IMG/VR virus record: IMGVR_UViG_3300036851_000176
Coordinates: 64,001 to 128,000 of that record
Origin: a virus
DNA: 64,000 bases
Reading direction: 5' to 3' (one strand)
The position numbers were made by a program, and so were the translations under genes. The notes under the pieces were generated by a model, which saw nothing but the letters and a program-made list of their open reading frames with translations, was not told the DNA's origin and ran no database searches. Shown here one piece after another: positions 31,780-45,050 of the stretch (its first letter is position 1; every line of letters starts with the position of its first letter).

Positions 31780-34389
31780 TTACTCGGACTTCTTCTCTGC
31801 CTTCGCCTCGGCCTCGGCCTTGGCGACAGCCTCGTCGGACGACAGGCCCTCCTCCAGGAAGAGCTGGCGTGCCCGACGCTGAACGTCAGCCGAAAGTTCG
31901 ACCTCTTCGGTCGTCTCCTCGGGCTTCGTTCCCTCGGTCGTGTCCTTGTCCGTGACCTGCTTGTCTTCCAGGTTCACGGCCCCACTGAGATCGACGAGAG
32001 CCTCGACCACATCGGACAGCGTGAGTCCGGTCGTCTTGGACTTCGGATCGTCGGAGAGCGTGATCTTGCCCTCGGACTTCGATCCCGGAACCTCGGCGAT
32101 CACCGTTCCGTCGTCGGCGAGCATGAACGCCTCGGCCGCTGCGAGAATGGCAGGAGCCTTCTTCTCCTCTGCCCACTCGCTCAGCTTCGCCTCCACCTTC
32201 GCCTTCTTCTGGGACTCCTTGAGCGCCTCGCGCTCTTCCAGAGCCGCGCGGATCTCGTCCTCCGAGAGTCCGAACGTCTCCACGTAGTCCACCGTTGCTT
32301 CGTCTGGCATTTCGTTACCTCCCTCCGATGCAGTCGATGTCACCTCCTGACTCAGTAGAACCAGAAGGTTCTCGCGGGTCAGTCTTGCGTCGCTCATGTT
32401 CACCTTGACGCCGTACTTCTTCAGCGCGGCGCGGATGCGAGCCTTGATCTTGCTGAGTTGCCCGCTGCTGTACTGCGCAGCGTTCTGTGCCTGGTTGATG
32501 TACGACCAGGCGGCTCGACAGTGCTGCTCGGTGTCGAGCGGGTATCGCTTCTTGCCGTCCTTCTGGTAACCGGGGTCGGCGTACTTCACGTCGCCGTACG
32601 GTTTCTTCGGGTCGGCGGCGAGATCAGCCTTCTCTTCGGATTCCTCGGTCTCCTCAGCAGCGGCCTCTTCCTCTGCTTCGGTCACCTCAGTCTCCTCAGC
32701 GACAACTTCCTCGCCCTCCGGGGCCTTCTCTTCGTCAGAGAGTTCGACATCCGCCTTACCCTCAGCGGCCCCGTCGTCCGTCTTCTCGACCTCCTTCTCC
32801 TCGGGCTTCTCTTCGGCGAGCATCGCCTCCAATTCCTCGTCGGAGATTTCGGTCACTTCCTCTGAGAACGTCACGACTGTCTTCACCTCCTCATCAGTTG
32901 CGGCCATACCGAAGGGCTTCATCCCACTCAGCCACGGCCGGTTCGTGAGCGCGACGTGTTCGAGCACGGCGTTGAAACGCTTGCCGTCTTCCTTACGCGG
33001 GTAGTCGAAGAGGACTCCTGCGCTGGTGTTGGCGATCGTTCCGTTCTGTGCCTTGCCCTTCACGTCAGGCTCCGTGAAGTCATGCGCCGCCTGAAGCGTC
33101 ACACGACCCTTTCCATCCTTCTTGAGCCGCAGCCCTCGGATGAAACCTGTATTTTCGAGAACTTTGTTGTCGTGCGATGTCGGGATCGTGACATGCTCAA
33201 CCGCCCCGTCCTCGTAATTCTTGAGCAACTCGCTCATCGAGATGACGAGCTTCGCGGGATCAGACTTGCCCTTCGCAATTACCGTGATCGGCTTCGAAAC
33301 CGGGCGCTGTCCAGGGCCAGGAGACAACTTCCACCTGCCCTCGCGCATGATCGTCTTCCAGATGTACCCATCCTTGTCCGCAGCGAGTTCGATTTCTCCG
33401 CGCGCGGTCTTATCATCGAAGAAGAACTCTCCCATCCATGGCTCGTCGTCCGACAGGCTCATTCCCATCGCGCGTGCCGGGTGGGGAGCCTTGTCGAGCG
33501 CCTTGTCCGCTCGATCCTTGGCAATGAGACCGTGGATGCGGCGGAAAATGTCCTTCATCTCGAACCGATCGCTGTCATCGGTCTCGACCTTCAAGTAGGA
33601 CAAAGCCGCGTCGGCGACGTGCTGAAGGATCTGGATGTTCGTCTCGGCAGCGAGATTCACACGCTCGGCAGATTCGGAGAGCAGCGTTTCGACCTTCTCC
33701 TCGTCGAGCGACTCGACGAACTTTGCGAGGTCGGTGTACTCCTCTTCTGTCCAGTCGAAATATTCGCTCAGAACAACCGGCTTCATCTTGGACTCCGCCT
33801 CCGCGCTCTTGCGCCAAGCGGTCGAGTGGTAGATGAGATCCTTGATGATTCCGGCATACCGCTGAGCATTCTCCTCTCCGAACTCTTCCTTGTAGTCGGC
33901 GAAGCACTGAGCAAATGGGTGCGAGAACTTAGCGTAGTAACGGAGCAGCGGGAGCAATTTCTGGTAGTCCTCCGCGCTCACGTTCGCCGTTCCGGGACTG
34001 AAGCCGCCCTGGAGGTTCTCGGCGCTGTACTTCTGGAAGTCTTCATCGCTCAGATCCACTTCGAGAGACACGATCGGGTCTTCGATCTCCGAGAGGCGGG
34101 CCTTTGCCGCGCGACTTGCTGCGGCCTTCGCCTTCAGCGCCTCCCACTCAGCGACAGCCTTGAGTGCCGCCGCGCGAGTCTCGGGCTTGACGTTTCCTCC
34201 GCCGCGCGCCCATCGCTTCACGGTGTTGATCGCCGTAGCGATGGCTCGCGATTCCGTCATACCCTTCTTCTTCAGCTCGTTGGCGATGTGCTGAATGTAG
34301 GCAGGAAGTTGCCAACCTTTGTGCTTCCACAGGGGCTTGGTGCCTACTGGCTCGTGGATCGTGGCTTTGGCGAGACTGCCTACTGCCAT
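31780..34389 (-). CDS. capsid maturation protease/scaffold fusion
   Basis: LEHVALTNRPWL protease motif, acidic scaffold tail, YADPGYQ.DGKKRYPLDT domain. Confidence 0.85.
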   Translation of the reverse strand: MAVGSLAKATIHEPVGTKPLWKHKGWQLPAYIQHIANELKKKGMTESRAIATAINTVKRWARGGGNVKPETRAAALKAVAEWEALKAKAAASRAAKARLSEIEDPIVSLEVDLSDEDFQKYSAENLQGGFSPGTANVSAEDYQKLLPLLRYYAKFSHPFAQCFADYKEEFGEENAQRYAGIIKDLIYHSTAWRKSAEAESKMKPVVLSEYFDWTEEEYTDLAKFVESLDEEKVETLLSESAERVNLAAETNIQILQHVADAALSYLKVETDDSDRFEMKDIFRRIHGLIAKDRADKALDKAPHPARAMGMSLSDDEPWMGEFFFDDKTARGEIELAADKDGYIWKTIMREGRWKLSPGPGQRPVSKPITVIAKGKSDPAKLVISMSELLKNYEDGAVEHVTIPTSHDNKVLENTGFIRGLRLKKDGKGRVTLQAAHDFTEPDVKGKAQNGTIANTSAGVLFDYPRKEDGKRFNAVLEHVALTNRPWLSGMKPFGMAATDEEVKTVVTFSEEVTEISDEELEAMLAEEKPEEKEVEKTDDGAAEGKADVELSDEEKAPEGEEVVAEETEVTEAEEEAAAEETEESEEKADLAADPKKPYGDVKYADPGYQKDGKKRYPLDTEQHCRAAWSYINQAQNAAQYSSGQLSKIKARIRAALKKYGVKVNMSDARLTRENLLVLLSQEVTSTASEGGNEMPDEATVDYVETFGLSEDEIRAALEEREALKESQKKAKVEAKLSEWAEEKKAPAILAAAEAFMLADDGTVIAEVPGSKSEGKITLSDDPKSKTTGLTLSDVVEALVDLSGAVNLEDKQVTDKDTTEGTKPEETTEEVELSADVQRRARQLFLEEGLSSDEAVAKAEAEAKAEKKSE

Positions 34390-34574
34390 CAGAGCGCCTC
34401 CCTTCCTAGGAGCCATTCCTTGATGATCTCTTCATCGATGCAAGGCGCAAACTGCCAACGACAGTGTGGGCACTTGTAGATGGGAGTTGTCTCCCTCGCG
34501 TATTCTTCGATCATTCGCATGCGGGTGTACTGAAGAACATCGTGCTGCTGCTTGCATCGAGGGCAGCGCATCAT
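34389..34574 (-). CDS. small Zn-ribbon protein
   Basis: CPRC...CPHC. Confidence 0.65.
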   Translation of the reverse strand: MMRCPRCKQQHDVLQYTRMRMIEEYARETTPIYKCPHCRWQFAPCIDEEIIKEWLLGREAL

Positions 34575-34755
34575 TCGCCCTTCGATCAGTGGGCGGCGGG
34601 GGCGTGCTGGTGACTGGCCGTCCGTCGCCACTAGCCCAATGTAACCATTAGAGGGTATTTCTGGCTGGATTTGGCAAGGGTTCGCGCAGGTAACAGACAG
34701 TTTCCTGCTTATCTTGTCAACCCGGACAATTTCACCTACGATTCGAAGTGGTAAA

Positions 34756-35109
34756 ATGATCGACGTGCCCCCTAAGGATCTGACGCGATGCCGCAAAGGT
34801 CATCGCAAGGCTCAAACAAGCGGTCGGTGTCGTCAGTGCAAGCGAGAAGCCGACCTTCGCTATCGCCATTCCGAGAAAGGTAGGGCGCAGAGGGCTGTCT
34901 ACGAACAAAGCGAGACGGGGAAGACTCGCAAGGCTCGTTTTCGATCTACCGAGACCAATGCCGTCATCCAGTCCCGGTACAGTCATTCCGAGAAAGGGCA
35001 TGCTCGCAGGGCGCGCTACCAACACAGCGATAAGGGACACGCGACGGCAAGCAGATTTCAACAGTCTGAGCGGGGGCGAAACATCGCCGCTCGAAATCGA
35101 CACAAGTAA
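34756..35109 (+). CDS. basic repeat protein (HNH N-terminal-like)
   Basis: CRQC followed by repeated ~13 aa Y/F-xxSEKG units. Confidence 0.65.
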   Translation: MIDVPPKDLTRCRKGHRKAQTSGRCRQCKREADLRYRHSEKGRAQRAVYEQSETGKTRKARFRSTETNAVIQSRYSHSEKGHARRARYQHSDKGHATASRFQQSERGRNIAARNRHK

Positions 35110-35118
35110 GGAGGTCTA

Positions 35119-36243
35119 GTGGCTGAAACAAGACAGTGCGGTAAGTGTCGAGAAGACAAGCCCGTGACCGACTTCGACGACACGCGAGTGTCCAACGGAG
35201 TCAGTCGCAAGTGTGAGGCTTGCTACGAAGCAGAGGGCAGAGGCCGACGACCGAACGTCGCCGAGCCAAGCGAGATCGAGAAGTCAACTCTCGAAGCCCT
35301 CAAGAAGCTGGGAGATACGGCGTCAATCGAAGAGATCGCCGACTACGCCGACATCGCGCCGAAGCGAGTGCGCGAGGCTCTGGAATCCCTTGGGCATCAA
35401 GGATTCCGTCTGGAGCACGAGGGAGATCACAAGGTTACCCTCCAGAAAGTCCCCCGACCGAGCACCATGGAGCACAAGGTGCTGTTCAAGGGCGAGACCT
35501 ATCGGTTCGCCATCATCTCCGACGTACACCTCAACTCGAAGCACTGCCGACTCGATGAACTCCACATCGCGTATGACATGGTGGCCTCCGAAGGAATCTC
35601 CGACGTGTACAACCCGGGAGACATCGTGGCCGGTCGCGGCATCTTCAAGGGCCAGGACCACGAGATCATCAACCACACGTTCGAGGCACAGAAATCGTTT
35701 GCGATCGAGAACTACCCGGTGCGTGATGGGGTCACGACCTACATCATCTCCGGGAACCACGACTGCGAAGGCGACTTCGGCAAGGCCGGAGCCGATGCCT
35801 GCCTCGGAGTGGCAAACGAGCGCGAGGACCTGATCTGGGGCGGAATGTATGCCGCCGACTATGTTCTCCCGAACGGAGCCGTGATGACGATGCGGCACCC
35901 GATGGGCGGATCGTCCTACGCGAAGTCGTACAAACCTCAGAAGTTCGCTGAATCGTTCGAGGGCGGCACGAAGCCCGCGATCGTCCTCTTCGGCCACTGG
36001 CACAACTTCGAGGTCGGTTTCCACCGCAACGTGTACATGATCAACTGCGGCACCTTCGAGGGATACGGCGGGACCTTGGGTCTCCGCGTTCCTCTCGGAG
36101 CGCCCGCTGTCGGCTTCACGATCGCCGAAGCAACTCTCGGCGATGACGGATCACTCGTCCGCTTCAAGCACGAGTGGTTCCCGTTCTACGCGGGCCGACG
36201 CATGGGCAAAGGAAAGAGCCGTTCCGGCCGCAAGGCTGCGTAG
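35119..36243 (+). CDS. HTH + calcineurin-like metallophosphoesterase
   Basis: SDVH, GDIV, SGNHD, MRHP, GHWH. Confidence 0.88.
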   Translation: MAETRQCGKCREDKPVTDFDDTRVSNGVSRKCEACYEAEGRGRRPNVAEPSEIEKSTLEALKKLGDTASIEEIADYADIAPKRVREALESLGHQGFRLEHEGDHKVTLQKVPRPSTMEHKVLFKGETYRFAIISDVHLNSKHCRLDELHIAYDMVASEGISDVYNPGDIVAGRGIFKGQDHEIINHTFEAQKSFAIENYPVRDGVTTYIISGNHDCEGDFGKAGADACLGVANEREDLIWGGMYAADYVLPNGAVMTMRHPMGGSSYAKSYKPQKFAESFEGGTKPAIVLFGHWHNFEVGFHRNVYMINCGTFEGYGGTLGLRVPLGAPAVGFTIAEATLGDDGSLVRFKHEWFPFYAGRRMGKGKSRSGRKAA

Positions 36244-36641
36244 TGGGCGGTCTATCCATCCCCGACCGGATTCTCAGTGAGGATGCCACCGAAAGGTGGT
36301 GTCCTTGCTGTGAGACCTGGAAGTTGATGGACCGCCAGCACTTCTATGTCGCCTCGAACACGAAAGCAGGATTTCGTCGGACGTGCAAGGCGTGCCAGAA
36401 ATTGAAAGATGCACGCAATCGACATCTCGAATACAACGGGTATGTCTACATGAATAGAGTCCGGCCGTGGCTGCGCGCTCTCGTCGAGAAACTCGGCTTC
36501 ACCGGTGCAGCCGAAGCCCTCGGCGTCTGGAAAGGCCAATTGGCCGGATGGATGAGCAAGCGCCGCAGACGTATCCAGCGGCGCAACGCGGCCCGCATTC
36601 TCCGCGTGTGCGGAGAGCATGGGATTCGCATCGCTGTTTAG
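36243..36641 (+). CDS. Zn-finger/HTH DNA-binding protein
   Basis: CPCC..CKAC, GAAEALGV. Confidence 0.65.
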   Translation: MGGLSIPDRILSEDATERWCPCCETWKLMDRQHFYVASNTKAGFRRTCKACQKLKDARNRHLEYNGYVYMNRVRPWLRALVEKLGFTGAAEALGVWKGQLAGWMSKRRRRIQRRNAARILRVCGEHGIRIAV

Positions 36642-36642
36642 G

Positions 36643-36713
36643 CTGGCACGGAAGGAATCGAACCTTCATCACTCGGTTAACAGCCGAGGGTTTTACCGTT
36701 AAACTACACGCCA
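36643..36713 (-). tRNA. tRNA-Asn(GTT)
   Basis: cloverleaf, CTCGG-CTGTTAA-CCGAG, GGTTCGATTCC. Confidence 0.9.
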
Positions 36714-36803
36714 TCGATTTACTGCTGTCGCAGTAGTTATTTCGTCAAACCGGCCAATTCCCTGGTCCAGGAAATTAGCCTTCGTGCAACGTTTCCGTTC
36801 AAA

Positions 36804-36879
36804 TGGGGGGTCGCCAGGGACTTGCACCCTGCTCAACCAGAGTCACAGTCTGGGATCTCGCTGCCTAGATTTACGACCC
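36804..36879 (-). tRNA. tRNA-His(GTG)
   Basis: CCAGA-CTGTGAC-TCTGG, C73-CCA, T-loop TGCAAGT. Confidence 0.85.
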
Positions 36880-36881
36880 AG

Positions 36882-36950
36882 CTGGAGAGGCAGGGGTCGA
36901 ACCTGCGCTACGAGGTTCAGAGCCTCGCTGTCTACCATTAACACCCTCCA
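36882..36950 (-). tRNA. tRNA-Gln(CTG)
   Basis: CGAGG-CTCTGAA-CCTCG. Confidence 0.85.
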
Positions 36951-37043
36951 ATGTAGGGAGACCACTCGCTTCCCACCCCGGCTTGGAGACCCCGGTTTGA
37001 TGGGGGTTTATCCTCACGGGCCTTAGCCTTGTCCGTCTCCCAG

Positions 37044-37114
37044 TGGACCGAGAAGGAGTTGAACCTTCACCTCCCGCGCTTCAAGCGGGCGCTCTACCTC
37101 TGAGCTACCAGTCC
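37044..37114 (-). tRNA. tRNA-Phe(GAA)
   Basis: CCCGC-TTGAAGC-GCGGG. Confidence 0.88.
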
Positions 37115-37126
37115 ATGTCTTGCTAG

Positions 37127-37195
37127 CGGGCCAGGAAGGAATCGAACCCTCTCCTAACGGGTTGGAGCCGTTTTGGACACCATGTCCTCTCGCCC
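37127..37195 (-). tRNA. tRNA-Trp(CCA)
   Basis: AACGG-CTCCAAC-CCGTT. Confidence 0.85.
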
Positions 37196-37262
37196 AAGTT
37201 GGACGATCGTGCGCACCGGGGGAATGCTCTTATCACCGGTGCCCAGTGCGCGCGTCGTCCGA

Positions 37263-37335
37263 TCAGGCTGAGAGGATTCGAACCTCTACCGCTCGCTCCC
37301 AAAGCGACCGTGCTGCCGTTGAACACTACAGCCTG
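37263..37335 (-). tRNA. tRNA-Pro(TGG)
   Basis: TCGC-TTTGGGA-GCGA, C1-G72. Confidence 0.9.
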
Positions 37336-37408
37336 TTGTGACTGTCTTCGCGGCTCGAACTTCGGTGCTTATGTGATGGTGCTTGAAGAGAGACGCGCAG
37401 ACAGCGAA

Positions 37409-37471
37409 TTAGACCCCTGGAAACCAGGGGGTATTCGGCTGATGCTGTTGCGATGTCATCTCGATCTTCAT
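37409..37471 (-). CDS. putative leader peptide MKIEMTSQQHQPNTPWFPGV of the Pro/Trp/Phe/Gln/His/Asn tRNA operon
   Basis: ATG 10 nt after -10 box; residues match downstream tRNAs. Confidence 0.75.
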   Translation of the reverse strand: MKIEMTSQQHQPNTPWFPGV

Positions 37472-37481
37472 TGCGCCACCA

Positions 37482-37510
37482 ACGTTACATGAATGGTCGT
37501 GGTCTGTCAA
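37482..37510 (-). promoter_or_regulatory. promoter, tRNA operon 4
   Basis: TTGACA-N17-TAACGT. Confidence 0.75.
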
Positions 37511-37511
37511 G

Positions 37512-37661
37512 CCGAGGCCGCTTGCTCAACCGCCAGTTTCCCAAGCGGCTCAGCGAAGCGGCCCAACACAAGGCCGATATTCCCAGTCGCCGCTGACACG
37601 GCTCCTGACTGCCTCGGATCCGGTGTCAGCCGGAGAGCCGAGCGGGCGCTTGCGCCTCGGA
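37512..37661 (-). ncRNA. unassigned structured RNA
   Basis: Closing CCGAGGC/GCCTCGG; GCTGACAC/GTGTCAGC and GCCGCTT/AAGCGGC stems. Confidence 0.4.
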
Positions 37662-37667
37662 CACGCT

Positions 37668-37868
37668 TCAAACGTCTGGCATCGAGAGGAAGTCCTGGTA
37701 ACTCTCCTGCATGTCGGCCAAGCGTTCCTCGAAAAACTCCCGAATCTCTTCTTCGCTGGCGCGAGGGATCAGAGCAGCAAGGGCATGGTTCATCTCGTCC
37801 GCTGCGTACTCTCGTGTTCTGTCGGGGATCTTCATGATGTGGGGTGGCAGACTATTTGAACGGCTCAT
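37668..37868 (-). CDS. hypothetical protein
   Basis: 66 aa with GGAGG RBS. Confidence 0.55.
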   Translation of the reverse strand: MSRSNSLPPHIMKIPDRTREYAADEMNHALAALIPRASEEEIREFFEERLADMQESYQDFLSMPDV

Positions 37869-37963
37869 GTGATGCCTCCGCTTAGCGGCCTGCCAGCGAC
37901 CTTACGCACTGGTTCTGTTCCCACGCCAGCGTGCGCCCCGCGCGGCCCCGAAGGGCATTTCAG

Positions 37964-38283
37964 TGGAGCCGCCGGGTATCGAACCCGGGTCCGTCTCGTC
38001 CGTACAAACAGATCTTCTAGCAGCTTCGGGGTGGTATACGCCACCTCCACCAGGGCAGACCTTTGGTCTCCGCGTCACCGTTGAATGGGGTCGGTGTCCC
38101 GTCCTACTGGTACATCATCCCGGACTTCTGTTCCTACCGGCCGGGGCGGCGCTCGTGGCCGTTAAGCCGCGAGAGGAAGCACGTATGCTTCGTCGTTTCG
38201 TTTGCCCTCCGGGCCGGTGCGGTAGGCCGCAACCCGCTGCGATCTCCTTGCCGTTTTCGAGGCGTCGAATCCAATTCGGCCCC
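37964..38283 (-). ncRNA. ssrA: tmRNA
   Basis: 5' GGGGCCGAATTGGATTCGAC, 3' GACCCGGGTTCGATACCCGGCGGCTCCA (G3-U70), tag frame ...NDEAYVLPLAA*. Confidence 0.93.
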
Positions 38284-38290
38284 ACACGGG

Positions 38291-38318
38291 ACTATACACA
38301 TTCCGGGCGTTTTGTCAA
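38291..38318 (-). promoter_or_regulatory. tmRNA promoter
   Basis: TTGACA-N16-TATAGT with TG extension. Confidence 0.75.
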
Positions 38319-38572
38319 CCCACCTCGCGCCATATCCCTCGTTCGAGGTACCCGTGCCAGCCATCCTTGTTATCGGCCAACTTCTCCAGGATCGATGGAG
38401 AGACGGTCACGGTGCCGTCCTGGTGCTCGGTCACGTCCCATTCTTCGAGACGTGCGGGGCCAGATCCGTTCGGGAGGCAAACCCACAGGAATCTCGATGG
38501 GCCTCGGAAACAGTAGTCGCCCGCTTCGAGTTCCCACGGCAGCGTGTTATCTGGGCGTCGTCGTCCTTTCAT
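38315..38572 (-). CDS. DUF6527-like protein
   Basis: W..TEH.DGTVTVSPSIL..WHGYL..G.W. Confidence 0.65.
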   Translation of the reverse strand: MKGRRRPDNTLPWELEAGDYCFRGPSRFLWVCLPNGSGPARLEEWDVTEHQDGTVTVSPSILEKLADNKDGWHGYLERGIWREVG

Positions 38573-38774
38573 GTGTTTACCGCAGACGACCCGCGCAAGG
38601 CGGGTCGTCGCGAGACTCAGGATCACCTCCCCGTTAGAAGGGCCACTCTTCCTGTACGGCCACCGCTACGGGGAGGCCGTTGAGTCTTGCCACGTAGACC
38701 ACCTCCTTCCTCCAACAAGGTGAGTCTACCGCAAAGTTTTTGGGCACAAAACATTGCAGTGGTACGCTAAAGGG

Positions 38775-38912
38775 ATGCCAATCGACCCCGAAACTGGACG
38801 CTACTGGACGCCGCGCTATCGATCGAAGTTTGAGGCGGTTCGAACCGTTGCCTCGTGCGTGTCTGCGGTTGGAACGATCTTCGTTCTGCTCAGAGTTTTC
38901 GGCAAGATCTAA
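38775..38912 (+). CDS. small membrane protein
   Basis: Manual translation, 45 aa with C-terminal TM; promoter-like TTGGGC..TACGCT upstream. Confidence 0.45.
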   Translation: MPIDPETGRYWTPRYRSKFEAVRTVASCVSAVGTIFVLLRVFGKI

Positions 38913-38913
38913 G

Positions 38914-38998
38914 CGGCGGGTGAGGGGATCGAACCCCCACAGGTGTTACCCCATCACCGGGTTCAAGCCGGATAAGCACGCCAGCCATGCGACCCGCC
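38914..38998 (-). tRNA. tRNA-Ser(TGA)
   Basis: CCGG-CTTGAAC-CCGG, long V arm, G73. Confidence 0.85.
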
Positions 38999-39070
38999 GA
39001 GTGGACGATGTAACGCATTTTGCGTCACTCTGTCCATTCAAACCATTCCGCAATCGGAACAATTATGAAA

Positions 39071-39151
39071 TGCGCACCCCGGGATTCGAACCCGGACGCC
39101 TCGCGGCACCAGCCTCTCAGACTGGCGTGTCTACCGTTCCACCAGGCGCGC
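39071..39151 (-). tRNA. tRNA-Leu(GAG)
   Basis: CCAGT-CTGAGAG-GCTGG, long V arm. Confidence 0.9.
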
Positions 39152-39187
39152 AAGTGTCAAGTTTTATGGCAAGAAAACTTGACAAAG

Positions 39188-39271
39188 CGGAAGGCCGAGG
39201 TCACGATCCCCACGCCTTTCGGCGCGATCCGGCTAGCAACCGGTCCCCGGGCCATCCCAGGTTGACCTTCC
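39188..39271 (-). tRNA. tRNA-Ser(GCT)
   Basis: CCGG-TTGCTAG-CCGG, long V arm. Confidence 0.85.
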
Positions 39272-39275
39272 GTAG

Positions 39276-39349
39276 TCCCCACGCCAGGATTCGAACCTGG
39301 ATCCCTCCGGTTTGAGCGGAGTGCGTCTGCCGGATTGCGCCACGCGGGG
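39276..39349 (-). tRNA. tRNA-Leu(CAA), short variable arm
   Basis: CTCCG-CTCAAAC-CGGAG. Confidence 0.88.
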
Positions 39350-39359
39350 CTATGTCGAG

Positions 39360-39446
39360 TACGGGAGGCGGGAGTCGAACCCGCACGTCCTTTCGGACAC
39401 CGATTTCTGAGACCGGCGCGTCTACCGAGATTCCAGCCACTCCCGT
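39360..39446 (-). tRNA. tRNA-Leu(CAG)
   Basis: CCGGT-CTCAGAA-ATCGG. Confidence 0.9.
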
Positions 39447-39454
39447 ATGTCGAG

Positions 39455-39527
39455 AGCCGATGGCAGGAATCGAACCTGCGTGGACGGGGTTGCAATCCGT
39501 CGCCTGGGACCACTCGGCCACATCGGC
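39455..39527 (-). tRNA. tRNA-Cys(GCA)
   Basis: loop TTGCAAC, U73. Confidence 0.9.
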
Positions 39528-39528
39528 T

Positions 39529-39602
39529 TGGTGGGCGCCCTAGGATTTGCACCTAGTCCTGCGGGGTTACGGCCCGGAATGCTCTAACTACACCAGACGC
39601 CC
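39529..39602 (-). tRNA. tRNA-Tyr(GTA), short variable arm
   Basis: CGGG-CCGTAAC-CCCG, encoded ACCA. Confidence 0.8.
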
Positions 39603-39609
39603 AAGTAGG

Positions 39610-39666
39610 TCAGTCCGCCGAGGCGGACTGGCTAAGACTTAGGCAATACAACTGGTGCGCGAACAT
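39610..39666 (-). CDS. putative leader peptide MFAHQLYCLSLSQSASAD of the Tyr/Cys/Leu/Ser tRNA operon
   Basis: ATG 10 nt after -10 box; LYCLSLS core; stop 7 nt before tRNA-Tyr. Confidence 0.75.
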   Translation of the reverse strand: MFAHQLYCLSLSQSASAD

Positions 39667-39676
39667 AACGTGCCGG

Positions 39677-39705
39677 AGTATAGACGAAGATTGCTGATTT
39701 CGCAA
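39677..39705 (-). promoter_or_regulatory. promoter, tRNA operon 3
   Basis: TTGCGA-N17-TATACT. Confidence 0.75.
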
Positions 39706-39928
39706 GTATCTTCTCTACTTGAGCAATCAGAGGTACTCGACGTGAAGAGTTCCGCCGAAGGGGAGGGTGCCATCGAAGAGGAACATTCCAAGTTCGTCAC
39801 CTTGGTAGGCCAGAATCGAGGGTATTTTCCTCGCGATCTTCTTGCTCCAGCGCCCACGCCGAGATGATCTTTCCAAGAGGAGGATCCGGAAAGAGGGGAC
39901 GACCCAGTTCGTCTCGATCGTCGGGCAC

Positions 39929-40189
39929 TTACTTCGCCTGGAACATCGGCTTCAGCCGAGGTCGCGTCTCTGGCTTAGGGTCTCCCTCGTCCTCTGGGTA
40001 ATCCACCGGCTGGCCCGAGATGCTGATGTCTCCTGTCCCGTTTTCTACAATCCTGTTCACGTTGTATCGGACGCGAAAGTCGTTCGAGTAGACATCGTTG
40101 TCGATTTCTAGGGTCTCTCCTTCTCCCGGAAGCAGCACATACCCAACCGCGAAGACAAAGCAGTTATCCGTGTGGTTCGTGAGGATCAT
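39929..40189 (-). CDS. hypothetical protein
   Basis: 86 aa ORF. Confidence 0.6.
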   Translation of the reverse strand: MILTNHTDNCFVFAVGYVLLPGEGETLEIDNDVYSNDFRVRYNVNRIVENGTGDISISGQPVDYPEDEGDPKPETRPRLKPMFQAK

Positions 40190-40192
40190 GAC

Positions 40193-40579
40193 TCAGGCCG
40201 GGTAAGGAACGATGTTGTACAGGACCACCAGAATCCCGCTGGCTACCGATCCTCCCGTCACATGAGCACTGATCTTTCCATCCTCGCTGGCAATGGATTT
40301 GATCCCGGATCCGAGTTCCGCCAAAACCGCGTAAGACGTGGCCGGAATGGAAGAGCCGGATGTGATCGAGTTGTCGGCTCCGATCCCTACACCCAACGAT
40401 CCAGATCCAGAGAACGCTTTCAGGACGACTACGGTGCTGACGATTGCCCAGCCCTTCGGAATCAGATCTCCGAATTCGTAGGTTCCGGCAGAAAGACCGG
40501 GGCGAGCATCGAAGGTGGCGACCTTTGAGGTTTGTCCACCCTTCATCAGGGCGTAAATCTCTGAAAGGGGAGCAGTCAT
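40193..40579 (-). CDS. hypothetical beta-rich protein
   Basis: Leaderless ATG 6 nt after TACACT. Confidence 0.6.
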   Translation of the reverse strand: MTAPLSEIYALMKGGQTSKVATFDARPGLSAGTYEFGDLIPKGWAIVSTVVVLKAFSGSGSLGVGIGADNSITSGSSIPATSYAVLAELGSGIKSIASEDGKISAHVTGGSVASGILVVLYNIVPYPA

Positions 40580-40606
40580 GGTGCGAGTGTACCATGCAAA
40601 ATCAGG

Positions 40607-40679
40607 AGCCGGGGAGAGGAGTCGAACCCCCACCGCAACCGTACAAAGGGTGCATGCTAGCCATTAACACCACCCCGGC
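40607..40679 (-). tRNA. tRNA-Thr(TGT)
   Basis: loop TTTGTAC, GCC 5' end. Confidence 0.85.
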
Positions 40680-40735
40680 TCGATCGTTCACTGGTGCAAG
40701 AAACTACGTTATGACTTAGTTTTCCGCACCAGTAG

Positions 40736-40808
40736 AGGCCCTAGGAGGATTCGAACCCCCGACTCACGCGGTAGAAACGCGCAGCTCTGTCCCCTGAGCT
40801 ACAGGGCC
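40736..40808 (-). tRNA. tRNA-Arg(TCT)
   Basis: GCGCG-TTTCTAC-CGCGT, GGA in D loop. Confidence 0.88.
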
Positions 40809-40838
40809 TTGGTAGTCATTACACGTACGATGTATCTG

Positions 40839-40929
40839 TCAGGCGCTAGTCTCCCTTGACCACTCCTGCCTCTCGTCCGCTGGTACCCGCTCGCGAGCGC
40901 ACGCCGGAATCGAACCGGCCGTCTCCTGA
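40839..40929 (-). ncRNA. circularly permuted tRNA-like RNA (Y RNA/YrlA-like candidate)
   Basis: T arm GCCGG-TTCGATT-CCGGC lies 5' of D-arm-like TGGTC-AAGGGA-GACTA; closed by TCAGG/CCTGA. Confidence 0.55.
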
Positions 40930-40931
40930 AG

Positions 40932-41003
40932 TGGATCCCCGAGGACTCGAACCCCGATCTCATGGCTTAAAAGGCCAGACTCTGCCTGTTGAGTTAGAGA
41001 TCC
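40932..41003 (-). tRNA. tRNA-Lys(TTT)
   Basis: TGGC-CTTTTAA-GCCA. Confidence 0.88.
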
Positions 41004-41045
41004 ATGTGCCGCAATTGGAAGGGGATGCGGCCAACCGTCTTCGAG

Positions 41046-41118
41046 TGGACCGGCCGAGATTCGAACTCGGATCGCACGCGGTGCAAGCGCGGCAGGTTCC
41101 CATTACGCCCACCAGCCC
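41046..41118 (-). tRNA. tRNA-Ala(TGC)
   Basis: loop CTTGCAC, G3-U70. Confidence 0.88.
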
Positions 41119-41129
41119 AGGTGTTGCTA

Positions 41130-41204
41130 TCGGCCGAGGAGGATTCGAACCTCCGACTGACACGGGTTCGAAGCCCGCCGCTCTGTCCACTGAGCTACCA
41201 GCCG
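41130..41204 (-). tRNA. tRNA-Arg(TCG)
   Basis: GCGGG-CTTCGAA-CCCGT. Confidence 0.88.
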
Positions 41205-41212
41205 TTATGTAG

Positions 41213-41285
41213 TGCGGCGAGCAAGAGTCGAACTTGCGTCCTCCGGGTTCGCAACCCGGCGCTCTGTCCTCTGAGCTATCGTCGC
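41213..41285 (-). tRNA. tRNA-Arg(GCG)
   Basis: CCGGG-TTGCGAA-CCCGG. Confidence 0.88.
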
Positions 41286-41334
41286 GCGTGTCATGCAATA
41301 CACGTTTTTCATGTACAACGTGACAGTCTTGCAG

Positions 41335-41407
41335 TGGCGCCCCGAGGACTTGCACCCCGTTCGCGCGGCTTAAGAGGCCGGACTCTGGCTCGTTGAGTTA
41401 GAGCGCC
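41335..41407 (-). tRNA. tRNA-Lys(CTT)
   Basis: CGGC-CTCTTAA-GCCG. Confidence 0.85.
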
Positions 41408-41415
41408 ATATGTAG

Positions 41416-41486
41416 TAGGCATCCAGAGACTTGAACTCCGATCTCCTGGGTGTAGGCCAGGTGTCCTCCCATTGGACGAGACGCCT
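41416..41486 (-). tRNA. tRNA-Val(TAC)
   Basis: CCTGG-CCTACAC-CCAGG. Confidence 0.82.
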
Positions 41487-41499
41487 ATGTTGTTTCGAG

Positions 41500-41572
41500 T
41501 GGACCGGGGAGCGATCGAATCTCCCGCCTCTCCTTTATCAGAGGAGCGCTCTGCCGTCTGAGCTACCAGTCC
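41500..41572 (-). tRNA. tRNA-Ile(GAT)
   Basis: CTCCT-CTGATAA-AGGAG. Confidence 0.88.
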
Positions 41573-41593
41573 ATGTTCCGTGCTGGACTGCGG

Positions 41594-41689
41594 CTATGCG
41601 ACGGTAATGCGCGTCGCGGCCAGCACGGTGCGGACGACGGTTCTCGTCGTTCGCTTGAGTTTCCTCTGTGCTGTCCGCGTGAAGTTCAT
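41594..41689 (-). CDS. putative leader peptide MNFTRTAQRKLKRTTRTVVRTVLAATRITVA of the Ile/Val/Lys/Arg/Ala/Thr tRNA operon
   Basis: Leaderless ATG 7 nt after -10; 25 of 31 residues are I/V/K/R/A/T. Confidence 0.8.
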   Translation of the reverse strand: MNFTRTAQRKLKRTTRTVVRTVLAATRITVA

Positions 41690-41696
41690 GATCGTG

Positions 41697-41724
41697 ACCT
41701 TAGCAGGTTTCGAGAAAAAGTCAA
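41697..41724 (-). promoter_or_regulatory. promoter, tRNA operon 2
   Basis: TTGACT-N16-TAAGGT with TG extension. Confidence 0.75.
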
Positions 41725-41725
41725 G

Positions 41726-41798
41726 AGCCACCGATCGGATTTGAACCGATCCTACAACGTTGGCAACGTTGCGTGCTACCGCTAGACACTACGGTGGC
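41726..41798 (-). tRNA. tRNA-Gly(GCC)
   Basis: CAACG-TTGCCAA-CGTTG, U73. Confidence 0.88.
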
Positions 41799-41927
41799 AA
41801 ATGGAGAGCCTAGGTCCTCAGTTATTCCCCGCCGGGGAGGACTCCACGGCATCACTCCTAAGAGTGGCGGGCCAGATGTCTCCGATGTCAACTCTCCTGG
41901 GAGACCCACGGTCTTTGGTTTTTCCAG

Positions 41928-42001
41928 AGCGCCTGCTCGGATTCGAACCGAGACTGCCAGCTTGGAAGGCTGGCGTGCTGACCGTTAAACACTACGGGCG
42001 C
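41928..42001 (-). tRNA. tRNA-Gly(TCC)
   Basis: CCAGC-CTTCCAA-GCTGG. Confidence 0.92.
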
Positions 42002-42029
42002 GTGCTTGCCATGGTACCTGAAACGAGAG

Positions 42030-42101
42030 CGGGTCTACGGAGGATCGAACTCCGATCTGTGCCTCGACAGGGCACCGTCCTAGCCATTGAACGACAGACC
42101 C
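42030..42101 (-). tRNA. tRNA-Asp(GTC)
   Basis: GTGCC-CTGTCGA-GGCAC, G73. Confidence 0.9.
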
Positions 42102-42194
42102 AAGGATGAGGAGTGAGCGGTGCAAATCGACCACCCTCATCAGCAACTCCTGTCCGGATGCATCCCCGGCTCAGGTCAGCAGCGTCCTACTGAG

Positions 42195-42268
42195 TGTCCC
42201 GACCGGGATTCGAACCCGGGTCGCCGCCGTGAGAGGGCGGTATCCTAGACCAACTAGACGATCAGGAC
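42195..42268 (-). tRNA. tRNA-Glu(CTC)
   Basis: CCGCC-CTCTCAC-GGCGG. Confidence 0.92.
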
Positions 42269-42320
42269 GTATCGGGGTTCTTCATCTCCGGGCCTGAACC
42301 CGAAGCGAGTGCTACCCCAG

Positions 42321-42394
42321 TGCCACCGGCGGGATTCGAACCCGCATCGCCGAGCTTGAAAGGCTCGCATCCTAAGCCATTAGACGACGTTGGC
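42321..42394 (-). tRNA. tRNA-Glu(TTC)
   Basis: CGAGC-CTTTCAA-GCTCG. Confidence 0.9.
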
Positions 42395-42395
42395 A

Positions 42396-42680
42396 AGTCC
42401 CCTTGCGGGGAGCGCCCAGTCCGCTTGCCCTCTACCGGGGGCCGACCGGGCAATGATTGAGGCACCTGCGGGCCGTGCCTCCCTGCGCCCTCCGGAGAAT
42501 CCATGAGGCTGCGAGCGGTGGAGAGTCGATCGCGCCTGGGATGTCAATTCGGGAGGGTCATGACTCCCTCCCGACCTGGCCGTCGCCAGGATTTCAGTGT
42601 TGCTCCGTCGAGCACCCCTCGGCCCGGACAACCGCCGGGACGGAAACGCGAGAGGCCACTGTCTCCGGGTTTCCCCTTCG
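42396..42680 (-). ncRNA. unassigned multi-stem RNA between tRNA-Met and tRNA-Glu
   Basis: At least six hairpins, e.g. CCTGGC-GACG-GCCAGG, TCGGGAGGG/CCCTCCCGA, GAGGCAC/GTGCCTC, TCCCC-GCAA-GGGGA. Confidence 0.5.
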
Positions 42681-42682
42681 AG

Positions 42683-42755
42683 TAGCGGGTACGGGAGTCG
42701 AACCCGCTGTCTTCGGCTTATGAGGCCGCTGTGGAAGCCGTTTCACTCCCCCGCT
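42683..42755 (-). tRNA. tRNA-Met(CAT)
   Basis: CGGC-CTCATAA-GCCG. Confidence 0.85.
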
Positions 42756-42761
42756 CGTCGG

Positions 42762-42789
42762 AGTATACATGCCGGAGATGGCATGTCAA
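42762..42789 (-). promoter_or_regulatory. promoter, tRNA operon 1
   Basis: TTGACA-N16-TATACT; ACATGCC/GGCATGT inverted repeat spans the spacer. Confidence 0.8.
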
Positions 42790-42793
42790 GGGC

Positions 42794-43162
42794 TTACTTG
42801 CAGTTCTGTGGATCGACCGCCTGGACGTTCTCCGGCTTCACGACTCCGTTGGGGATCTGAAACAGGAAGTCTCCACAGGCCGACTGACTTCCGTCTGCGT
42901 TCGACACGACGGCCAGGCACTCGAAGCGAATGGAGTTCTTGGGATCCTGAGCACACTTCACGATGCGCGCGATCTGGATTCCTTCGGCTGCCTCGGCCTT
43001 GTTGAAGTCTCGCTTCAGCGCGATCCCGGCTTTCTGCGTCACCGTCAGGGGTTTCGGCTTGGGCTTCGAGTCACCGCCCGTCGTCAAGACGATCGCGGCA
43101 ACAACGGCAGCTACTACGACCACGGCGAGTACGGCGTAACTGACGATCTGGTTGCGCTTCAT
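42794..43162 (-). CDS. membrane-anchored/secreted protein
   Basis: N-terminal TM, four Cys. Confidence 0.7.
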   Translation of the reverse strand: MKRNQIVSYAVLAVVVVAAVVAAIVLTTGGDSKPKPKPLTVTQKAGIALKRDFNKAEAAEGIQIARIVKCAQDPKNSIRFECLAVVSNADGSQSACGDFLFQIPNGVVKPENVQAVDPQNCK

Positions 43163-43668
43163 GGCTTTCCTTTCTCTTGAGGGATAGGTGGCGGCAATGC
43201 GTAAAAGACGAACTTACCGGGCTTGTTCGACCGTCCCGATCTATGAACCGCTACCGGAGCGGCTCCTTGTTGCCGACTCTGCGTGGTTGCTTCGACACAC
43301 TGCTTATGCAAGTCACGGTCGTACGGCAATTTGTACCCTCGCGGCTCGTCCGGGATCGACGAATACCCAAACGGACTTGCGTAATGCTTCTGCGGAATGA
43401 GCCAGAGATAGATCGCTCCGGTGCTGGGATCGGATTGGTCCTGTGGTTCGACGACATGACAACCCGCGAAAATGCTCTTCCTTGGCGGCTCGTTCGGAGT
43501 CGGCCATCCCGTGCCAGTGACTCTATAGTGGATCACAGTGAAATTGAGGCCGACGACGACCAGGATGGCGGCAAGTTTCAGCCCCCAGTACCCCCATCCC
43601 TTTGCACAAATCGCCCAGAGCAGAATCGCGTCTAGGATCGTCAGGGAGAGAAAGAGGCTAGAGATCAC
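43159..43668 (-). CDS. membrane protein (TolQ-like module)
   Basis: 2 TM, IYLW...PRGYKLPY..LH. Confidence 0.7.
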   Translation of the reverse strand: MISSLFLSLTILDAILLWAICAKGWGYWGLKLAAILVVVGLNFTVIHYRVTGTGWPTPNEPPRKSIFAGCHVVEPQDQSDPSTGAIYLWLIPQKHYASPFGYSSIPDEPRGYKLPYDRDLHKQCVEATTQSRQQGAAPVAVHRSGRSNKPGKFVFYALPPPIPQEKGKP

Positions 43669-44321
43669 GGGGCGCCCCCGCCGTAGTAGTCAGGAGCGCG
43701 CGTACCGTTTCCGCCGGAGGAGTCATAAGACACTCCTGCACTTGGATCAGCGGAGTAAACGACGTTCTTGGGAAGTTCGTTGTGTCCCGTCATTCTCCCC
43801 TTGGCATCGAGAGTGAAACGGAAAGGAGTCAGCGCCTGTCCCTCTCGGACAAGGACTACGTTGCGAGAGATCAGAGACTTGTCGTTGCCACGCAATCGCC
43901 ACAGTTCGACATGTACCTTGATGCTTCCTCGATCACTCTTCATGTAGAGATGAACGTTGACCGAATACTCACCCACGACCGCTCCCCTGATGACGACTCG
44001 TTCTCCGTTCTGAACCACCCTGACGGATCCTTCGGTCTCGGACGCTGCGGTTCCGAGGTCGTCGTGCTCAAGGTGCATGAGACCGACGCTGTCGGAACCG
44101 AAGTAAACGACGTTTCCTTCGGGATCCTCGACGTAAAGATCCACGTCATCATTCGATCCGTCCTTCCATGAGATCGTGACCGCGTACACACCCAGCGTGT
44201 CCACGGCCGTCGTCTTCTTGGGTGGCGGCTGAAGAAGAACGAGGATGATGAGAAGGAGACAGAACAGCGTATCGATCGCTGCCCATGCGACCGCCGCCCT
44301 AGCGCTGTCGCGGTGTGGCAT
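43665..44321 (-). CDS. single-TM protein with YfaP/DUF2135-like domain
   Basis: TM with Asp (IDTLF), W...DDVDLYVEDPEG, GEYSVNVHLY. Confidence 0.7.
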   Translation of the reverse strand: MPHRDSARAAVAWAAIDTLFCLLLIILVLLQPPPKKTTAVDTLGVYAVTISWKDGSNDDVDLYVEDPEGNVVYFGSDSVGLMHLEHDDLGTAASETEGSVRVVQNGERVVIRGAVVGEYSVNVHLYMKSDRGSIKVHVELWRLRGNDKSLISRNVVLVREGQALTPFRFTLDAKGRMTGHNELPKNVVYSADPSAGVSYDSSGGNGTRAPDYYGGGAP

Positions 44322-44733
44322 GATCTTTGAGGGGAAGCTGAAGCAACACGAGCACGACCGCGCAAGAGATTCCCACGAACGTCGCAAGCAATCCGCTTGA
44401 AGCGCCCGCGACCTTCTGCTGGAAATTCGTCACGTCACTCGAATCGCTGCTGAGCGCCATGAGGAATCCAGCGACCGTCCCGAGCATCGCCACCATCGGG
44501 CAGAGACCGATCGCCTCAGAGAGATGATGCTTCTCGTCCTTCTGCTCGTCCCATGCCAACTTCCCCGCGTATGCGCTAGCAACAGCGAACACACTGAAAA
44601 CAGCGCCAATCGCCAGTTTGGCCGGAGTGGGGATGCTGCCCGAATAGGAAATGTCTGCTGTGACAAGGCTTGCTACGAAGAGCACGTTGATCAGTGCCCA
44701 ACGGAGGAAGAGTTTCCTGTCACGAACCCTCAT
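44299..44733 (-). CDS. MotA/TolQ/ExbB-like membrane protein
   Basis: PMVAMLGTVAGF..., LLATFVGI. Confidence 0.75.
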   Translation of the reverse strand: MRVRDRKLFLRWALINVLFVASLVTADISYSGSIPTPAKLAIGAVFSVFAVASAYAGKLAWDEQKDEKHHLSEAIGLCPMVAMLGTVAGFLMALSSDSSDVTNFQQKVAGASSGLLATFVGISCAVVLVLLQLPLKDHATPRQR

Positions 44734-44759
44734 TTACTCACCTTACCAGAATGACCCGA

Positions 44760-45050
44760 CTAGTCAATTTTCGGAAGCATCGACTGCGGTTGGGAGATTC
44801 CTTTCTCGTCAACGGGCGTAATCAAGCCGTTCTGACAGGCCAGGAGAACGGCCTGGGCCAGATTCCGCGCTCCGAGTCGATCCTTAAGATCGCGGGTCAC
44901 TCGATTGATCTCGCTGAGCGAGAGATACTCCTCCTTGGCGATTTCCTTCAACTTCACCCCTGACGCTGTGCGCGCGAGGATGCGAGTTTGAAGGACCGTC
45001 AACGTAGGCTTTCGAACAGCTCGATCCACTGTGGTGCGATCAGGCGCCAT
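44760..45050 (-). CDS. LuxR-type HTH protein
   Basis: LT...ASG..KEIA...LGARNLAQAV..A..GLI. Confidence 0.75.
   Translation of the reverse strand: MAPDRTTVDRAVRKPTLTVLQTRILARTASGVKLKEIAKEEYLSLSEINRVTRDLKDRLGARNLAQAVLLACQNGLITPVDEKGISQPQSMLPKID

Follow-up and report, generated by a model that had tools for sequence, protein, structure and literature searches.

Short reading frames matched to the tRNA blocks that they precede suggest leader-peptide control of tRNA genes in an uncultured soil phage

Several enterobacterial attenuators are multivalent: the leader of ilvGMEDA contains Ile, Val, and Leu codons and the thr leader contains Thr and Ile codons; further leaders of this group are trpL, hisL, and pheL. 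In the classical attenuators, the terminator is located beyond the ORF. In E. coli, the pheM leader attenuates pheST, which encodes an aminoacyl-tRNA synthetase; a single amino acid is sensed and the terminator is canonical. The pyrBI attenuator senses UTP by polymerase pausing and contains a U-tract terminator. T-boxes directly bind one uncharged tRNA and are characterized by a conserved T-box motif, a specifier loop, and the absence of an ORF. The purpose of tRNA genes in phage genomes has been a matter of debate for decades and, to our knowledge, the control of these genes is hardly known. A recent view is that phage tRNA genes contribute to the evasion of defence (PMC10264068, PMC11464382). 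The leader-peptide attenuator pheL has been described (PMC3082878) and, in mycobacteria, leaderless polycysteine short ORFs act as amino-acid-responsive attenuators heading operons (10.1101/834739; background in PMC4633059). In the literature, we found leader-peptide attenuators for protein-coding operons only and no paper on leader ORFs preceding tRNA genes.

The locus described here, a spacer preceding a block of phage tRNA genes, probably combines the logic of leader-peptide attenuation with a tRNA cargo, codons for six amino acids, a leaderless start, and the absence of a canonical terminator. As in the ilv, thr, trpL, hisL, and pheL leaders, a short promoter-proximal ORF is enriched in codons that would report on the regulated function. 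This ORF lies within predicted alternative pairings that would be set by the position of the ribosome and, as in the ilv and thr leaders, more than one amino acid would be monitored. The phage leader differs from the ilv, thr, trp, his, and phe leaders in being borne by a phage, in having tRNA genes instead of biosynthetic enzymes as cargo, in covering six amino acids, in having its stop codon inside the last hairpin, in lacking a U-tract terminator, and in its probable leaderless initiation. For pheST, as would be the case for the phage leader, leader-peptide attenuation acts on a component of the translation apparatus, the substrate of the enzyme being the sensed tRNA, whereas the phage leader heads the tRNA genes themselves, covers six amino acids, and has no canonical terminator. 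Like the polycysteine ORFs, the phage leader is a short ORF heading an operon with a proposed start at the 5' end of the transcript, which is deduced here from promoter spacing only. Unlike these ORFs, which contain runs of a single amino acid and precede protein-coding genes, it interleaves six amino acids. As in pyrBI, a hairpin lies within reach of the translating ribosome, so that coupling alone can prevent its formation, but the phage leader has no U-tract terminator and the proposed signal is codon supply. The proposed control of translation-system genes by tRNA status is shared with the T-box riboswitches.

The window, i.e. the whole stretch of DNA analyzed here (64,000 nucleotides), corresponds to bases 64001-128000 of a 146,625-bp IMG/VR virus contig that originates from a soil metagenome and is estimated to be 95% complete. 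The contig carries genes for a major capsid protein, a tape measure protein, and tail proteins. It also encodes DnaB, a helicase, an FtsH-like protease, RtcB, and a glycosyltransferase. None of the isolated phages is close, the best capsid identities being approximately 30%, and comparison of the leader region with GenBank phages by blastn returned short tRNA matches only.

The tRNA genes of the window are all located on the (-) strand between positions 36641 and 42755, with a tmRNA gene among them (ARAGORN, Rfam). The 25 ARAGORN calls correspond to 24 tRNA genes and the tmRNA gene, and Rfam adds further tRNA matches. This cluster of tRNA genes in a phage genome is thus a phage tRNA gene array. 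It comprises four blocks, which do not overlap and together account for all 20 amino acids (Table 1). One of the matches detected by Rfam only (39360-39446, - strand) displays an anticodon loop, CU-CAG-AA, and a long variable arm indicative of a tRNA-Leu(CAG). A separate near-consensus promoter, TTGACA-16-TATAGT, precedes the tmRNA gene (37963-38318, - strand), with 7 nt between the two. A tmRNA gene is also present in the array of the relatives, and the tag peptides that ARAGORN predicts are of an unusual kind and vary among the phages. No homologue was found for a 128-residue protein encoded inside the array.

Table 1. Positions and characteristics of the leaders, their cargo, and associated elements. 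Numbers refer to the window unless preceded by an L number, which designates a related phage.
Feature	Position	Strand	Characteristics
-35-like hexamer TTGACT	41719..41724	(-)	Read from the sequence; directly after tRNA-Gly(GCC), 16 nt before the -10-like box
-10-like hexamer TAAGGT	41697..41702	(-)	Preceded by TGC (extended -10 type); ATG 7 nt downstream
Leader B ORF	41594..41689	(-)	31 codons + TAG; ATG at 41689, TAG at 41596-41594
5' segment	41668..41679	(-)	Codons 4-8; potential pairing partner of the hairpin 2 5' arm
Hairpin 1	41630..41654	(-)	Codons 12-20, inside the ORF; predicted fold
Hairpin 2	41578..41628	(-)	Encloses the stop codon (41596-41594)
CAGTCCA	41584..41590	(-)	Complement of the tRNA-Ile acceptor 5' strand (41573-41567); shares 3 nt with the 3' arm of hairpin 2
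Block B, cargo of leader B	40605..41572	(-)	tRNA Ile, Val, (Lys-CUU candidate), Arg, Arg, Ala, Lys, Arg, Thr; ARAGORN, Rfam
tRNA-Lys(CUU)-like gene	41340-41414	(-)	Directly 3' of tRNA-Val; alignment only
Block A		(-)	tRNA Met, Glu, Glu, Asp, Gly, Gly; consensus promoter 6 nt 5' of mature tRNA-Met
Leader C	39610..39666	(-)	18 codons; 9/17 in Y/C/L/S; behind TTGCGA-17-TATACT
Cargo of leader C			tRNA Tyr, Cys, Leu(CAG), Leu, Leu, Ser
Leader D	37409..37471	(-)	20 codons; 10/19 in P/W/F/Q/H/N; behind TTGACA-17-TAACGT
Cargo of leader D			tRNA Pro, Trp, Phe, Gln, His, Asn
Leader B of L010	L010:11995-12090		31 codons; 24/30 in-set; peptide 52% identical to that of the window
Leader B of L007	L007:7577-7660		27 codons; 20/26 in I/V/K/R/A/T, 22/26 counting Gly
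-10-to-start distance, 7 nt			Window B; L010 C and D; L007 C; L009 D
-10-to-start distance, 8 nt			L010 B
-10-to-start distance, 9 nt			L004 D
-10-to-start distance, 10 nt			Window C and D

Block B is encoded by the same DNA strand as leader B and includes tRNAs Ile(GAU), Val(UAC), Arg(GCG), Arg(UCG), Ala(UGC), Lys(UUU), Arg(UCU), and Thr(UGU). The initial annotation of this DNA had listed nine tRNAs in the block. Eight of these were called, and the remaining one, the first tRNA-Lys, was missed by both ARAGORN and Rfam/Infernal. The acceptor stem of the sequence at this position is good and its anticodon loop contains CUU, whereas its D arm and T loop are atypical; the sequence aligns with canonical tRNA-Lys(CUU) genes located at the matching position in three relatives (L010, L007, and L011). 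Lys(CUU) is therefore considered here as a candidate only. Block A is the one block that has no leader. A spacer of approximately 285 nt (42396-42680, - strand) separates tRNA-Met from tRNA-Glu in this block; at the same place, L010 contains a called 59-codon ORF that is not enriched in Met, Glu, Asp, and Gly codons.

The spacer between tRNA-Gly(GCC) and tRNA-Ile(GAU) comprises 152 nt (41573-41724, - strand) and harbors the leader B ORF, which lies between a σ70-like promoter and the tRNA block and ends 21 nt before tRNA-Ile. The arrangement is that of an attenuator in this respect, a short ORF being present right after the promoter and before the putatively regulated genes. The -35-like hexamer did not appear in the list produced by a scan for consensus promoters because the associated -10 box is weak. 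The -35 boxes of the sister units of the array are TTGACA and TTGCGA, and in nearly all units, 6-10 nt separate a consensus promoter from the downstream start codon or tRNA 5' end. The distance between the -10 box and the start codon is 7-10 nt in all ten leaders identified in the window and in related phages (see below), with the exception of leader B of L007. Initiation of leader B translation at position 41689 would probably be leaderless, as judged from the 7-nt distance separating the start codon from the -10 box.

Leader B is dominated by residues specified by the tRNAs that follow. Twenty-five of the 31 residues, or 25 of the 30 that follow the initiator Met, are Ile, Val, Lys, Arg, Ala, or Thr (T8 R6 V4 A4 K2 I1), and our recount reproduced the composition given in the initial annotation. 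The codon count also agreed with the five different Arg codons (CGG, AGG, CGA, AGA, and CGC, the latter twice) and both Lys codons (AAA and AAG) that had been reported. The ORF thus covers all three Arg codon boxes served by the three Arg tRNAs of the phage, in addition to both Lys codons. None of the 30 residues belongs to the set of the tRNA block located just upstream (Met, Glu, Asp, and Gly).

The codon content was compared with that of 152,493 stop-free 30-codon windows from the six frames of the phage genome, the initiator Met being left out. The mean number of in-set residues was 11.8 in this background, against 25 of 30 in leader B (P = 4.6e-5). None of 5000 dinucleotide-preserving shuffles of the ORF reached 25. 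The antisense frame -2 of the ORF also contained 21 in-set residues of 31, indicating that the bias stems in part, although not wholly, from the ACG/CGT-type sequence that forms the hairpins. The empirical P values obtained for leaders C and D in the window phage were 1.4e-2 and 4.7e-3, respectively, and combining the three leaders of the window by Fisher's method led to a P value of approximately 7e-7. For the three leaders of the distant relative L004/L007, taken alone, the P values were 3.4e-3, 5.3e-3, and 6.4e-5. In a matrix matching each leader with each of the four amino acid sets, the count for the leader's own set was the highest in 10 out of 10 leaders from four phages. The putative regulatory codons are therefore enriched for amino acids tied to the genes that follow, as expected for an attenuator, and the match between the codons of the leader ORF and its cargo is not due to chance.

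At the codon level, AGA and AGG together account for 14% of the Arg codons in the long genes of the phage, and AAA for 15% of the Lys codons. AGA, AGG, AAA, and AAG are present in each of the three B leaders, which matches the presence of tRNAs Arg(UCU), Lys(UUU), and Lys(CUU). Except for AGR and AAA, no enrichment was detected beyond amino acid identity. About 7 of the 25 in-set codons of leader B (ACC, GTC, and GCC) are not read by the U34 tRNAs of the phage under standard wobble rules. Since codons of this type are common in the ORF and U34-read codons are not enriched, the match mainly holds at the amino acid level.

Relatives of the window phage were sought with homologues of the capsid protein and of the glycosyltransferase in NCBI, JGI, and Logan assemblies. 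Searches of IMG/VR with the MotB-like protein, the phosphoesterase, or the capsid protein did not reveal any close relative. The exact stem word of leader B had a single chance match in IMG/VR, located in a coding region (L003), and contigs of viruses, metagenomes, and genomes contained no match to the conserved tRNA-Ile word. In L013 and L014, which are more distant relatives, no tRNAs were located near the glycosyltransferase and capsid genes. All three types of leaders recur among three related uncultured phages, and the match to the cargo is retained at leader B peptide identities of 25-52%.

The JGI contig L010 encodes a glycosyltransferase 66% identical to that of the window phage. Its leader B region consists of tRNA-Gly(UCC), TGT-TATACT, 8 nt, ATG, a total of 31 codons, TAG, 17 nt, and tRNA-Ile, which is followed by tRNAs Val, Lys, Lys, Arg, Arg, Ala, and Thr. 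The start, stop, length, and frame of the ORF are conserved. In the comparison with the window, the indels are of 3, 3, and 6 nt inside the ORF, versus 1 and 5 nt after the stop codon. Nine of the 14 replaced positions are in-set on both sides, and five identical residues are specified by different codons. The motifs R-T-A and K-L-K-R of the peptide are conserved. L004 and L007 belong to a single NCBI contig of 146,274 bp, whose capsid protein is 69% identical to that of the window phage. The tRNA blocks of this contig are rearranged, each having kept its leader. Leader B of L007 is preceded by a Shine-Dalgarno sequence and encodes a peptide 25% identical to that of the window. Its cargo consists of tRNAs Gly, Gly, Ile, Val, Lys, Arg, Ala, Arg, Thr, and Arg, and the leader has gained two Gly codons. 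In a second soil metagenome run, a relative of approximately 90% identity covers positions 41409-41692.

Leaders C and D follow the same rule with other sets of amino acids (Table 1). Homologues of leader C were found in L010 and L007, and homologues of leader D in L010, L004, and L009, L009 contributing a leader of the D type. In leader D of L004, 15 of 20 residues belong to the leader's own set (P = 6e-5), and the corresponding count is 14 of 20 in L009. The in-set codons of leaders C and D are clustered directly upstream of the 5' arm of a hairpin or within it. The second soil metagenome run contains a variant of leader D (37409-37471, - strand) with an in-frame insertion of 6 nt corresponding to two additional CAG codons, a Val-to-Phe replacement at the last codon, and a synonymous Phe change (TTT to TTC). 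Each of these changes is either neutral or increases the number of residues belonging to the set of the block. Thus, the leader ORF is constrained in frame, in composition, which tracks the cargo (as exemplified by Gly in L007), and in RNA structure (see below).

Two explanations not involving a sensor were weighed against these data. The ORF could be incidental, the spacer containing only an internal promoter and a structured 5' leader and processing hairpins, with the bias in Thr, Arg, Val, and Ala resulting from ACG/CGT-rich stems. The in-set content of the antisense frame is in line with this explanation, as is the fourth relative, L011, in which no leader ORF was found in the Gly-Ile spacer before tRNA-Ile. 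We consider it improbable because the dinucleotide shuffles never reached 25 of 30, because L010 retains the start, stop, length, and frame of the ORF and has in-frame indels only within it, and because leaders C and D obey the same rule with quite different compositions and stems. Alternatively, the product itself might be functional, for example as a small arginine-rich RNA-binding peptide acting on the tRNA transcript or on the ribosome. The peptide is indeed strongly basic (8 Arg or Lys of 31 residues) and its R-T-A and K-L-K-R motifs persist in L010. However, set membership is maintained in the L007 homologue at only 25% identity, exchanges between chemically dissimilar residues, such as R to T and T to V, remain within the set, and the sister leaders C and D are left unexplained, making a functional peptide similarly improbable.

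Two Gly-Ile spacers without leader ORF, L007:7826-7911 and L011:15831-15976, share the sequence GCGCAGGGAGGCA approximately 30 nt before tRNA-Ile. Genes for HNH-type homing endonucleases are inserted in the tRNA arrays of relatives (L009:187-580 and L011:15434-15772). The endonuclease gene of L009 is preceded by a 5' fragment of tRNA-Pro and followed by a complete tRNA-Pro. The gene of L011 is located before tRNA-Gly, at the position occupied in other phages by the B leader or by its promoter.

The predicted folding of the spacer is better than that of shuffled sequences, with z scores of -2.7 for the whole spacer and of -3.0 to -3.6 for sub-segments. Hairpin 1, which lies inside the ORF, is the best-supported structural element: four of its eight pairs differ on both sides between the window and L010 and remain paired (compensatory changes), and L007 also has a hairpin at this position. 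On the (+) strand, the same positions (41630-41654) are followed by a T-rich tail and were listed as terminator-like; hairpin 1 could also stop antisense transcription into the array on that strand. In hairpin 2, the outer stem is formed in the predicted fold by CCGTGCTGG (41628-41620) and CCAGCACGG (41586-41578), and the inner stem by GCGACG and CGTCGC (41617-41612 and 41603-41598). The initial annotation had proposed that this 9-base stem enclosing GCGACG/CGTCGC would be opened by a translating ribosome. The stem exists as part of the predicted fold, and the ORF ends within a hairpin, which would have to be opened by any ribosome arriving at the stop codon. The particular stem is not conserved, since its 3' arm, CCAGCACGG, is deleted in L010 and since L007 has a different hairpin. 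Covariation was found instead in the mid-ORF hairpin (41654-41630), which contains the four compensatory pairs. What stands of the earlier interpretation is therefore a conserved, in-frame ORF that tracks its cargo and ends with a stop codon in a hairpin.

The 5' arm of hairpin 2 is identical in L010, where it pairs with the segment containing the stop codon, and the same pairing is available in the window. In L007, an unrelated 9-bp hairpin has a 3' arm that starts at the last base of the stop codon. A GC-rich hairpin holding or touching the stop codon is present in 10 out of 10 leaders. In the B and C leaders, as well as in the D leaders of L004 and L009, 3-12 nt separate the end of this hairpin from the first tRNA. 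The hairpin of leader D displays a double change, C-G to U-A, between the window and L010. A classical 1:2/2:3/3:4 scheme based on the near-repeats of the window ACGACG, CGTCGT, GCGACG, and CGTCGC was discarded, as the 2:3 pairing is unavailable in L010.

Predicted alternative pairings involve the 5' segment of the ORF, which in the form GGACAGC can also pair with positions 41591-41585. Pairing of the 5' segment is part of the minimum-energy folds of the window and of L010, if the first bases of tRNA-Ile are included, and of the RNAalifold consensus. Adding the first 13 bases of tRNA-Ile switches the minimum-energy folds of both phages. In the switched fold, codons 6-8 (CAGCAC) become the partner of the hairpin 2 5' arm, and the 5' strand of the tRNA-Ile acceptor stem is paired with CAGTCC(A). 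CAGTCC is conserved in L010 beside an identical 5' end of tRNA-Ile. The window and L010 share the sequences of the segments engaged in these pairings, with no covariation.

None of the B hairpins is followed by a U tract, and the terminator scan did not reveal any terminator-like site on the (-) strand of the spacer. Since hairpin 2 lacks a U tract, it is not a canonical intrinsic terminator. No intrinsic terminator was found between the leader and the tRNA genes, and the sister leaders have weak U-rich tails only. Canonical terminators are hardly more common in the phage than in shuffled sequences, with one good example at 58056-58036. The absence of a canonical terminator at the leaders of this lineage suggests that the read-out may differ from the textbook case.

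The complementarity between leader codons and the anticodons of the downstream tRNAs would also be expected for direct sensing of tRNAs by codon-anticodon pairing, without ribosomes, in the manner of a T-box. We regard this possibility as extremely unlikely. An Rfam scan of positions 34000-45000 with E values up to 1 returned tRNAs, the tmRNA, and chance matches only, and neither a T-box nor another Rfam family was matched in the spacer. In addition, the frame, start, and stop of the ORF are conserved, and many of its codons lie in stems.

The conservation of the match between ORF and cargo in related phages indicates that the leader is probably a sensor read by the ribosome, which would tie tRNA output to decoding speed. 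The simplest explanation would be that the ORF is translated and that the progress of the ribosome through the codons of the block provides the regulatory signal. We favor, with reasonable rather than high confidence, the view that the spacer is a leader-peptide gate of the attenuation type acting on the phage tRNA genes and sensing shortage. According to this model, the spacer would be the control region of one tRNA transcription unit, in which the σ70-type promoter would start the RNA at the ATG or a few bases from it. A ribosome would then translate the 31-codon ORF through codons of the six amino acids whose tRNAs follow. The ORF runs through two GC-rich hairpins, the second of which contains its stop codon. 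Which of the exclusive pairings is formed would therefore depend on how far the ribosome has advanced. Slow decoding, if the matching charged tRNAs are in short supply, for example following cleavage or decay of host tRNAs, would shift the fold, leading to increased transcription or maturation of the downstream tRNA block. We infer translation of the ORF, the sign of the response, and the output step, which might be termination, pausing, or the folding of tRNA-Ile or its processing, for instance by RNase P.

The sign of the response deserves separate consideration, since the presence of the stop codon inside the last hairpin and the absence of a downstream terminator are also compatible with a translated leader having the opposite sign or another output. 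A ribosome keeping close behind the RNA polymerase, or arriving at the stop codon, would melt the stop-codon hairpin in a coupling of the pyrBI type and allow the first tRNA to be transcribed or processed at its 5' end. The output of tRNAs would then follow translational capacity instead of shortage. Three observations fit this alternative: in each of the ten leaders, the stop codon is located in the 3' arm of the terminal hairpin or beside it; the distance between this hairpin and the tRNA is short (3-12 nt) in the B and C leaders; and the ORF is not followed by a separate terminator. However, positive feedback does not explain why the leaders sample every amino acid of their own block, and a ribosome stalled at the in-set codons of leaders C and D would likewise prevent the hairpin from forming. 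An opposite sign is thus rather unlikely in our opinion. Sensing of shortage is favored because it accounts for the sampling by each leader of every amino acid of its own block and because the lineage encodes tRNA repair enzymes and a tmRNA.

The FtsH-like AAA protease and RtcB are encoded by the window phage at 49505-51643 and 61777-63171, respectively (both on the - strand). Relatives carry an RNA ligase (PF09414), which adjoins RtcB in L011. The FtsH-like protease, RtcB, and the RNA ligase look like a tRNA-repair and proteostasis module of the lineage. RtcB, the RNA ligase, and the tmRNA are in keeping with a possible importance of tRNA damage and ribosome stalling for this lineage. A more far-reaching proposal, which we put forward tentatively, is that the four blocks providing tRNAs for all 20 amino acids, three of which would be gated by leaders rich in the amino acids of the respective block, constitute a viral sensor of tRNA shortage, such as that caused by attack of host anticodon nucleases, operating without a canonical terminator in a lineage of high GC content. 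A possible route would be competition of CAGTCC for pairing with the acceptor strand of the first tRNA of the block. In addition to transcription termination, the folding or processing of this tRNA would then depend on where the ribosome stands.

If shortage sensing by the leaders is correct, the phage would measure decoding speed for defined groups of codons and adjust its supply of tRNAs block by block. The question of when a phage needs its tRNAs would become testable. Leader-peptide attenuation, a textbook mechanism for biosynthetic operons, would then extend to genes for stable RNAs.
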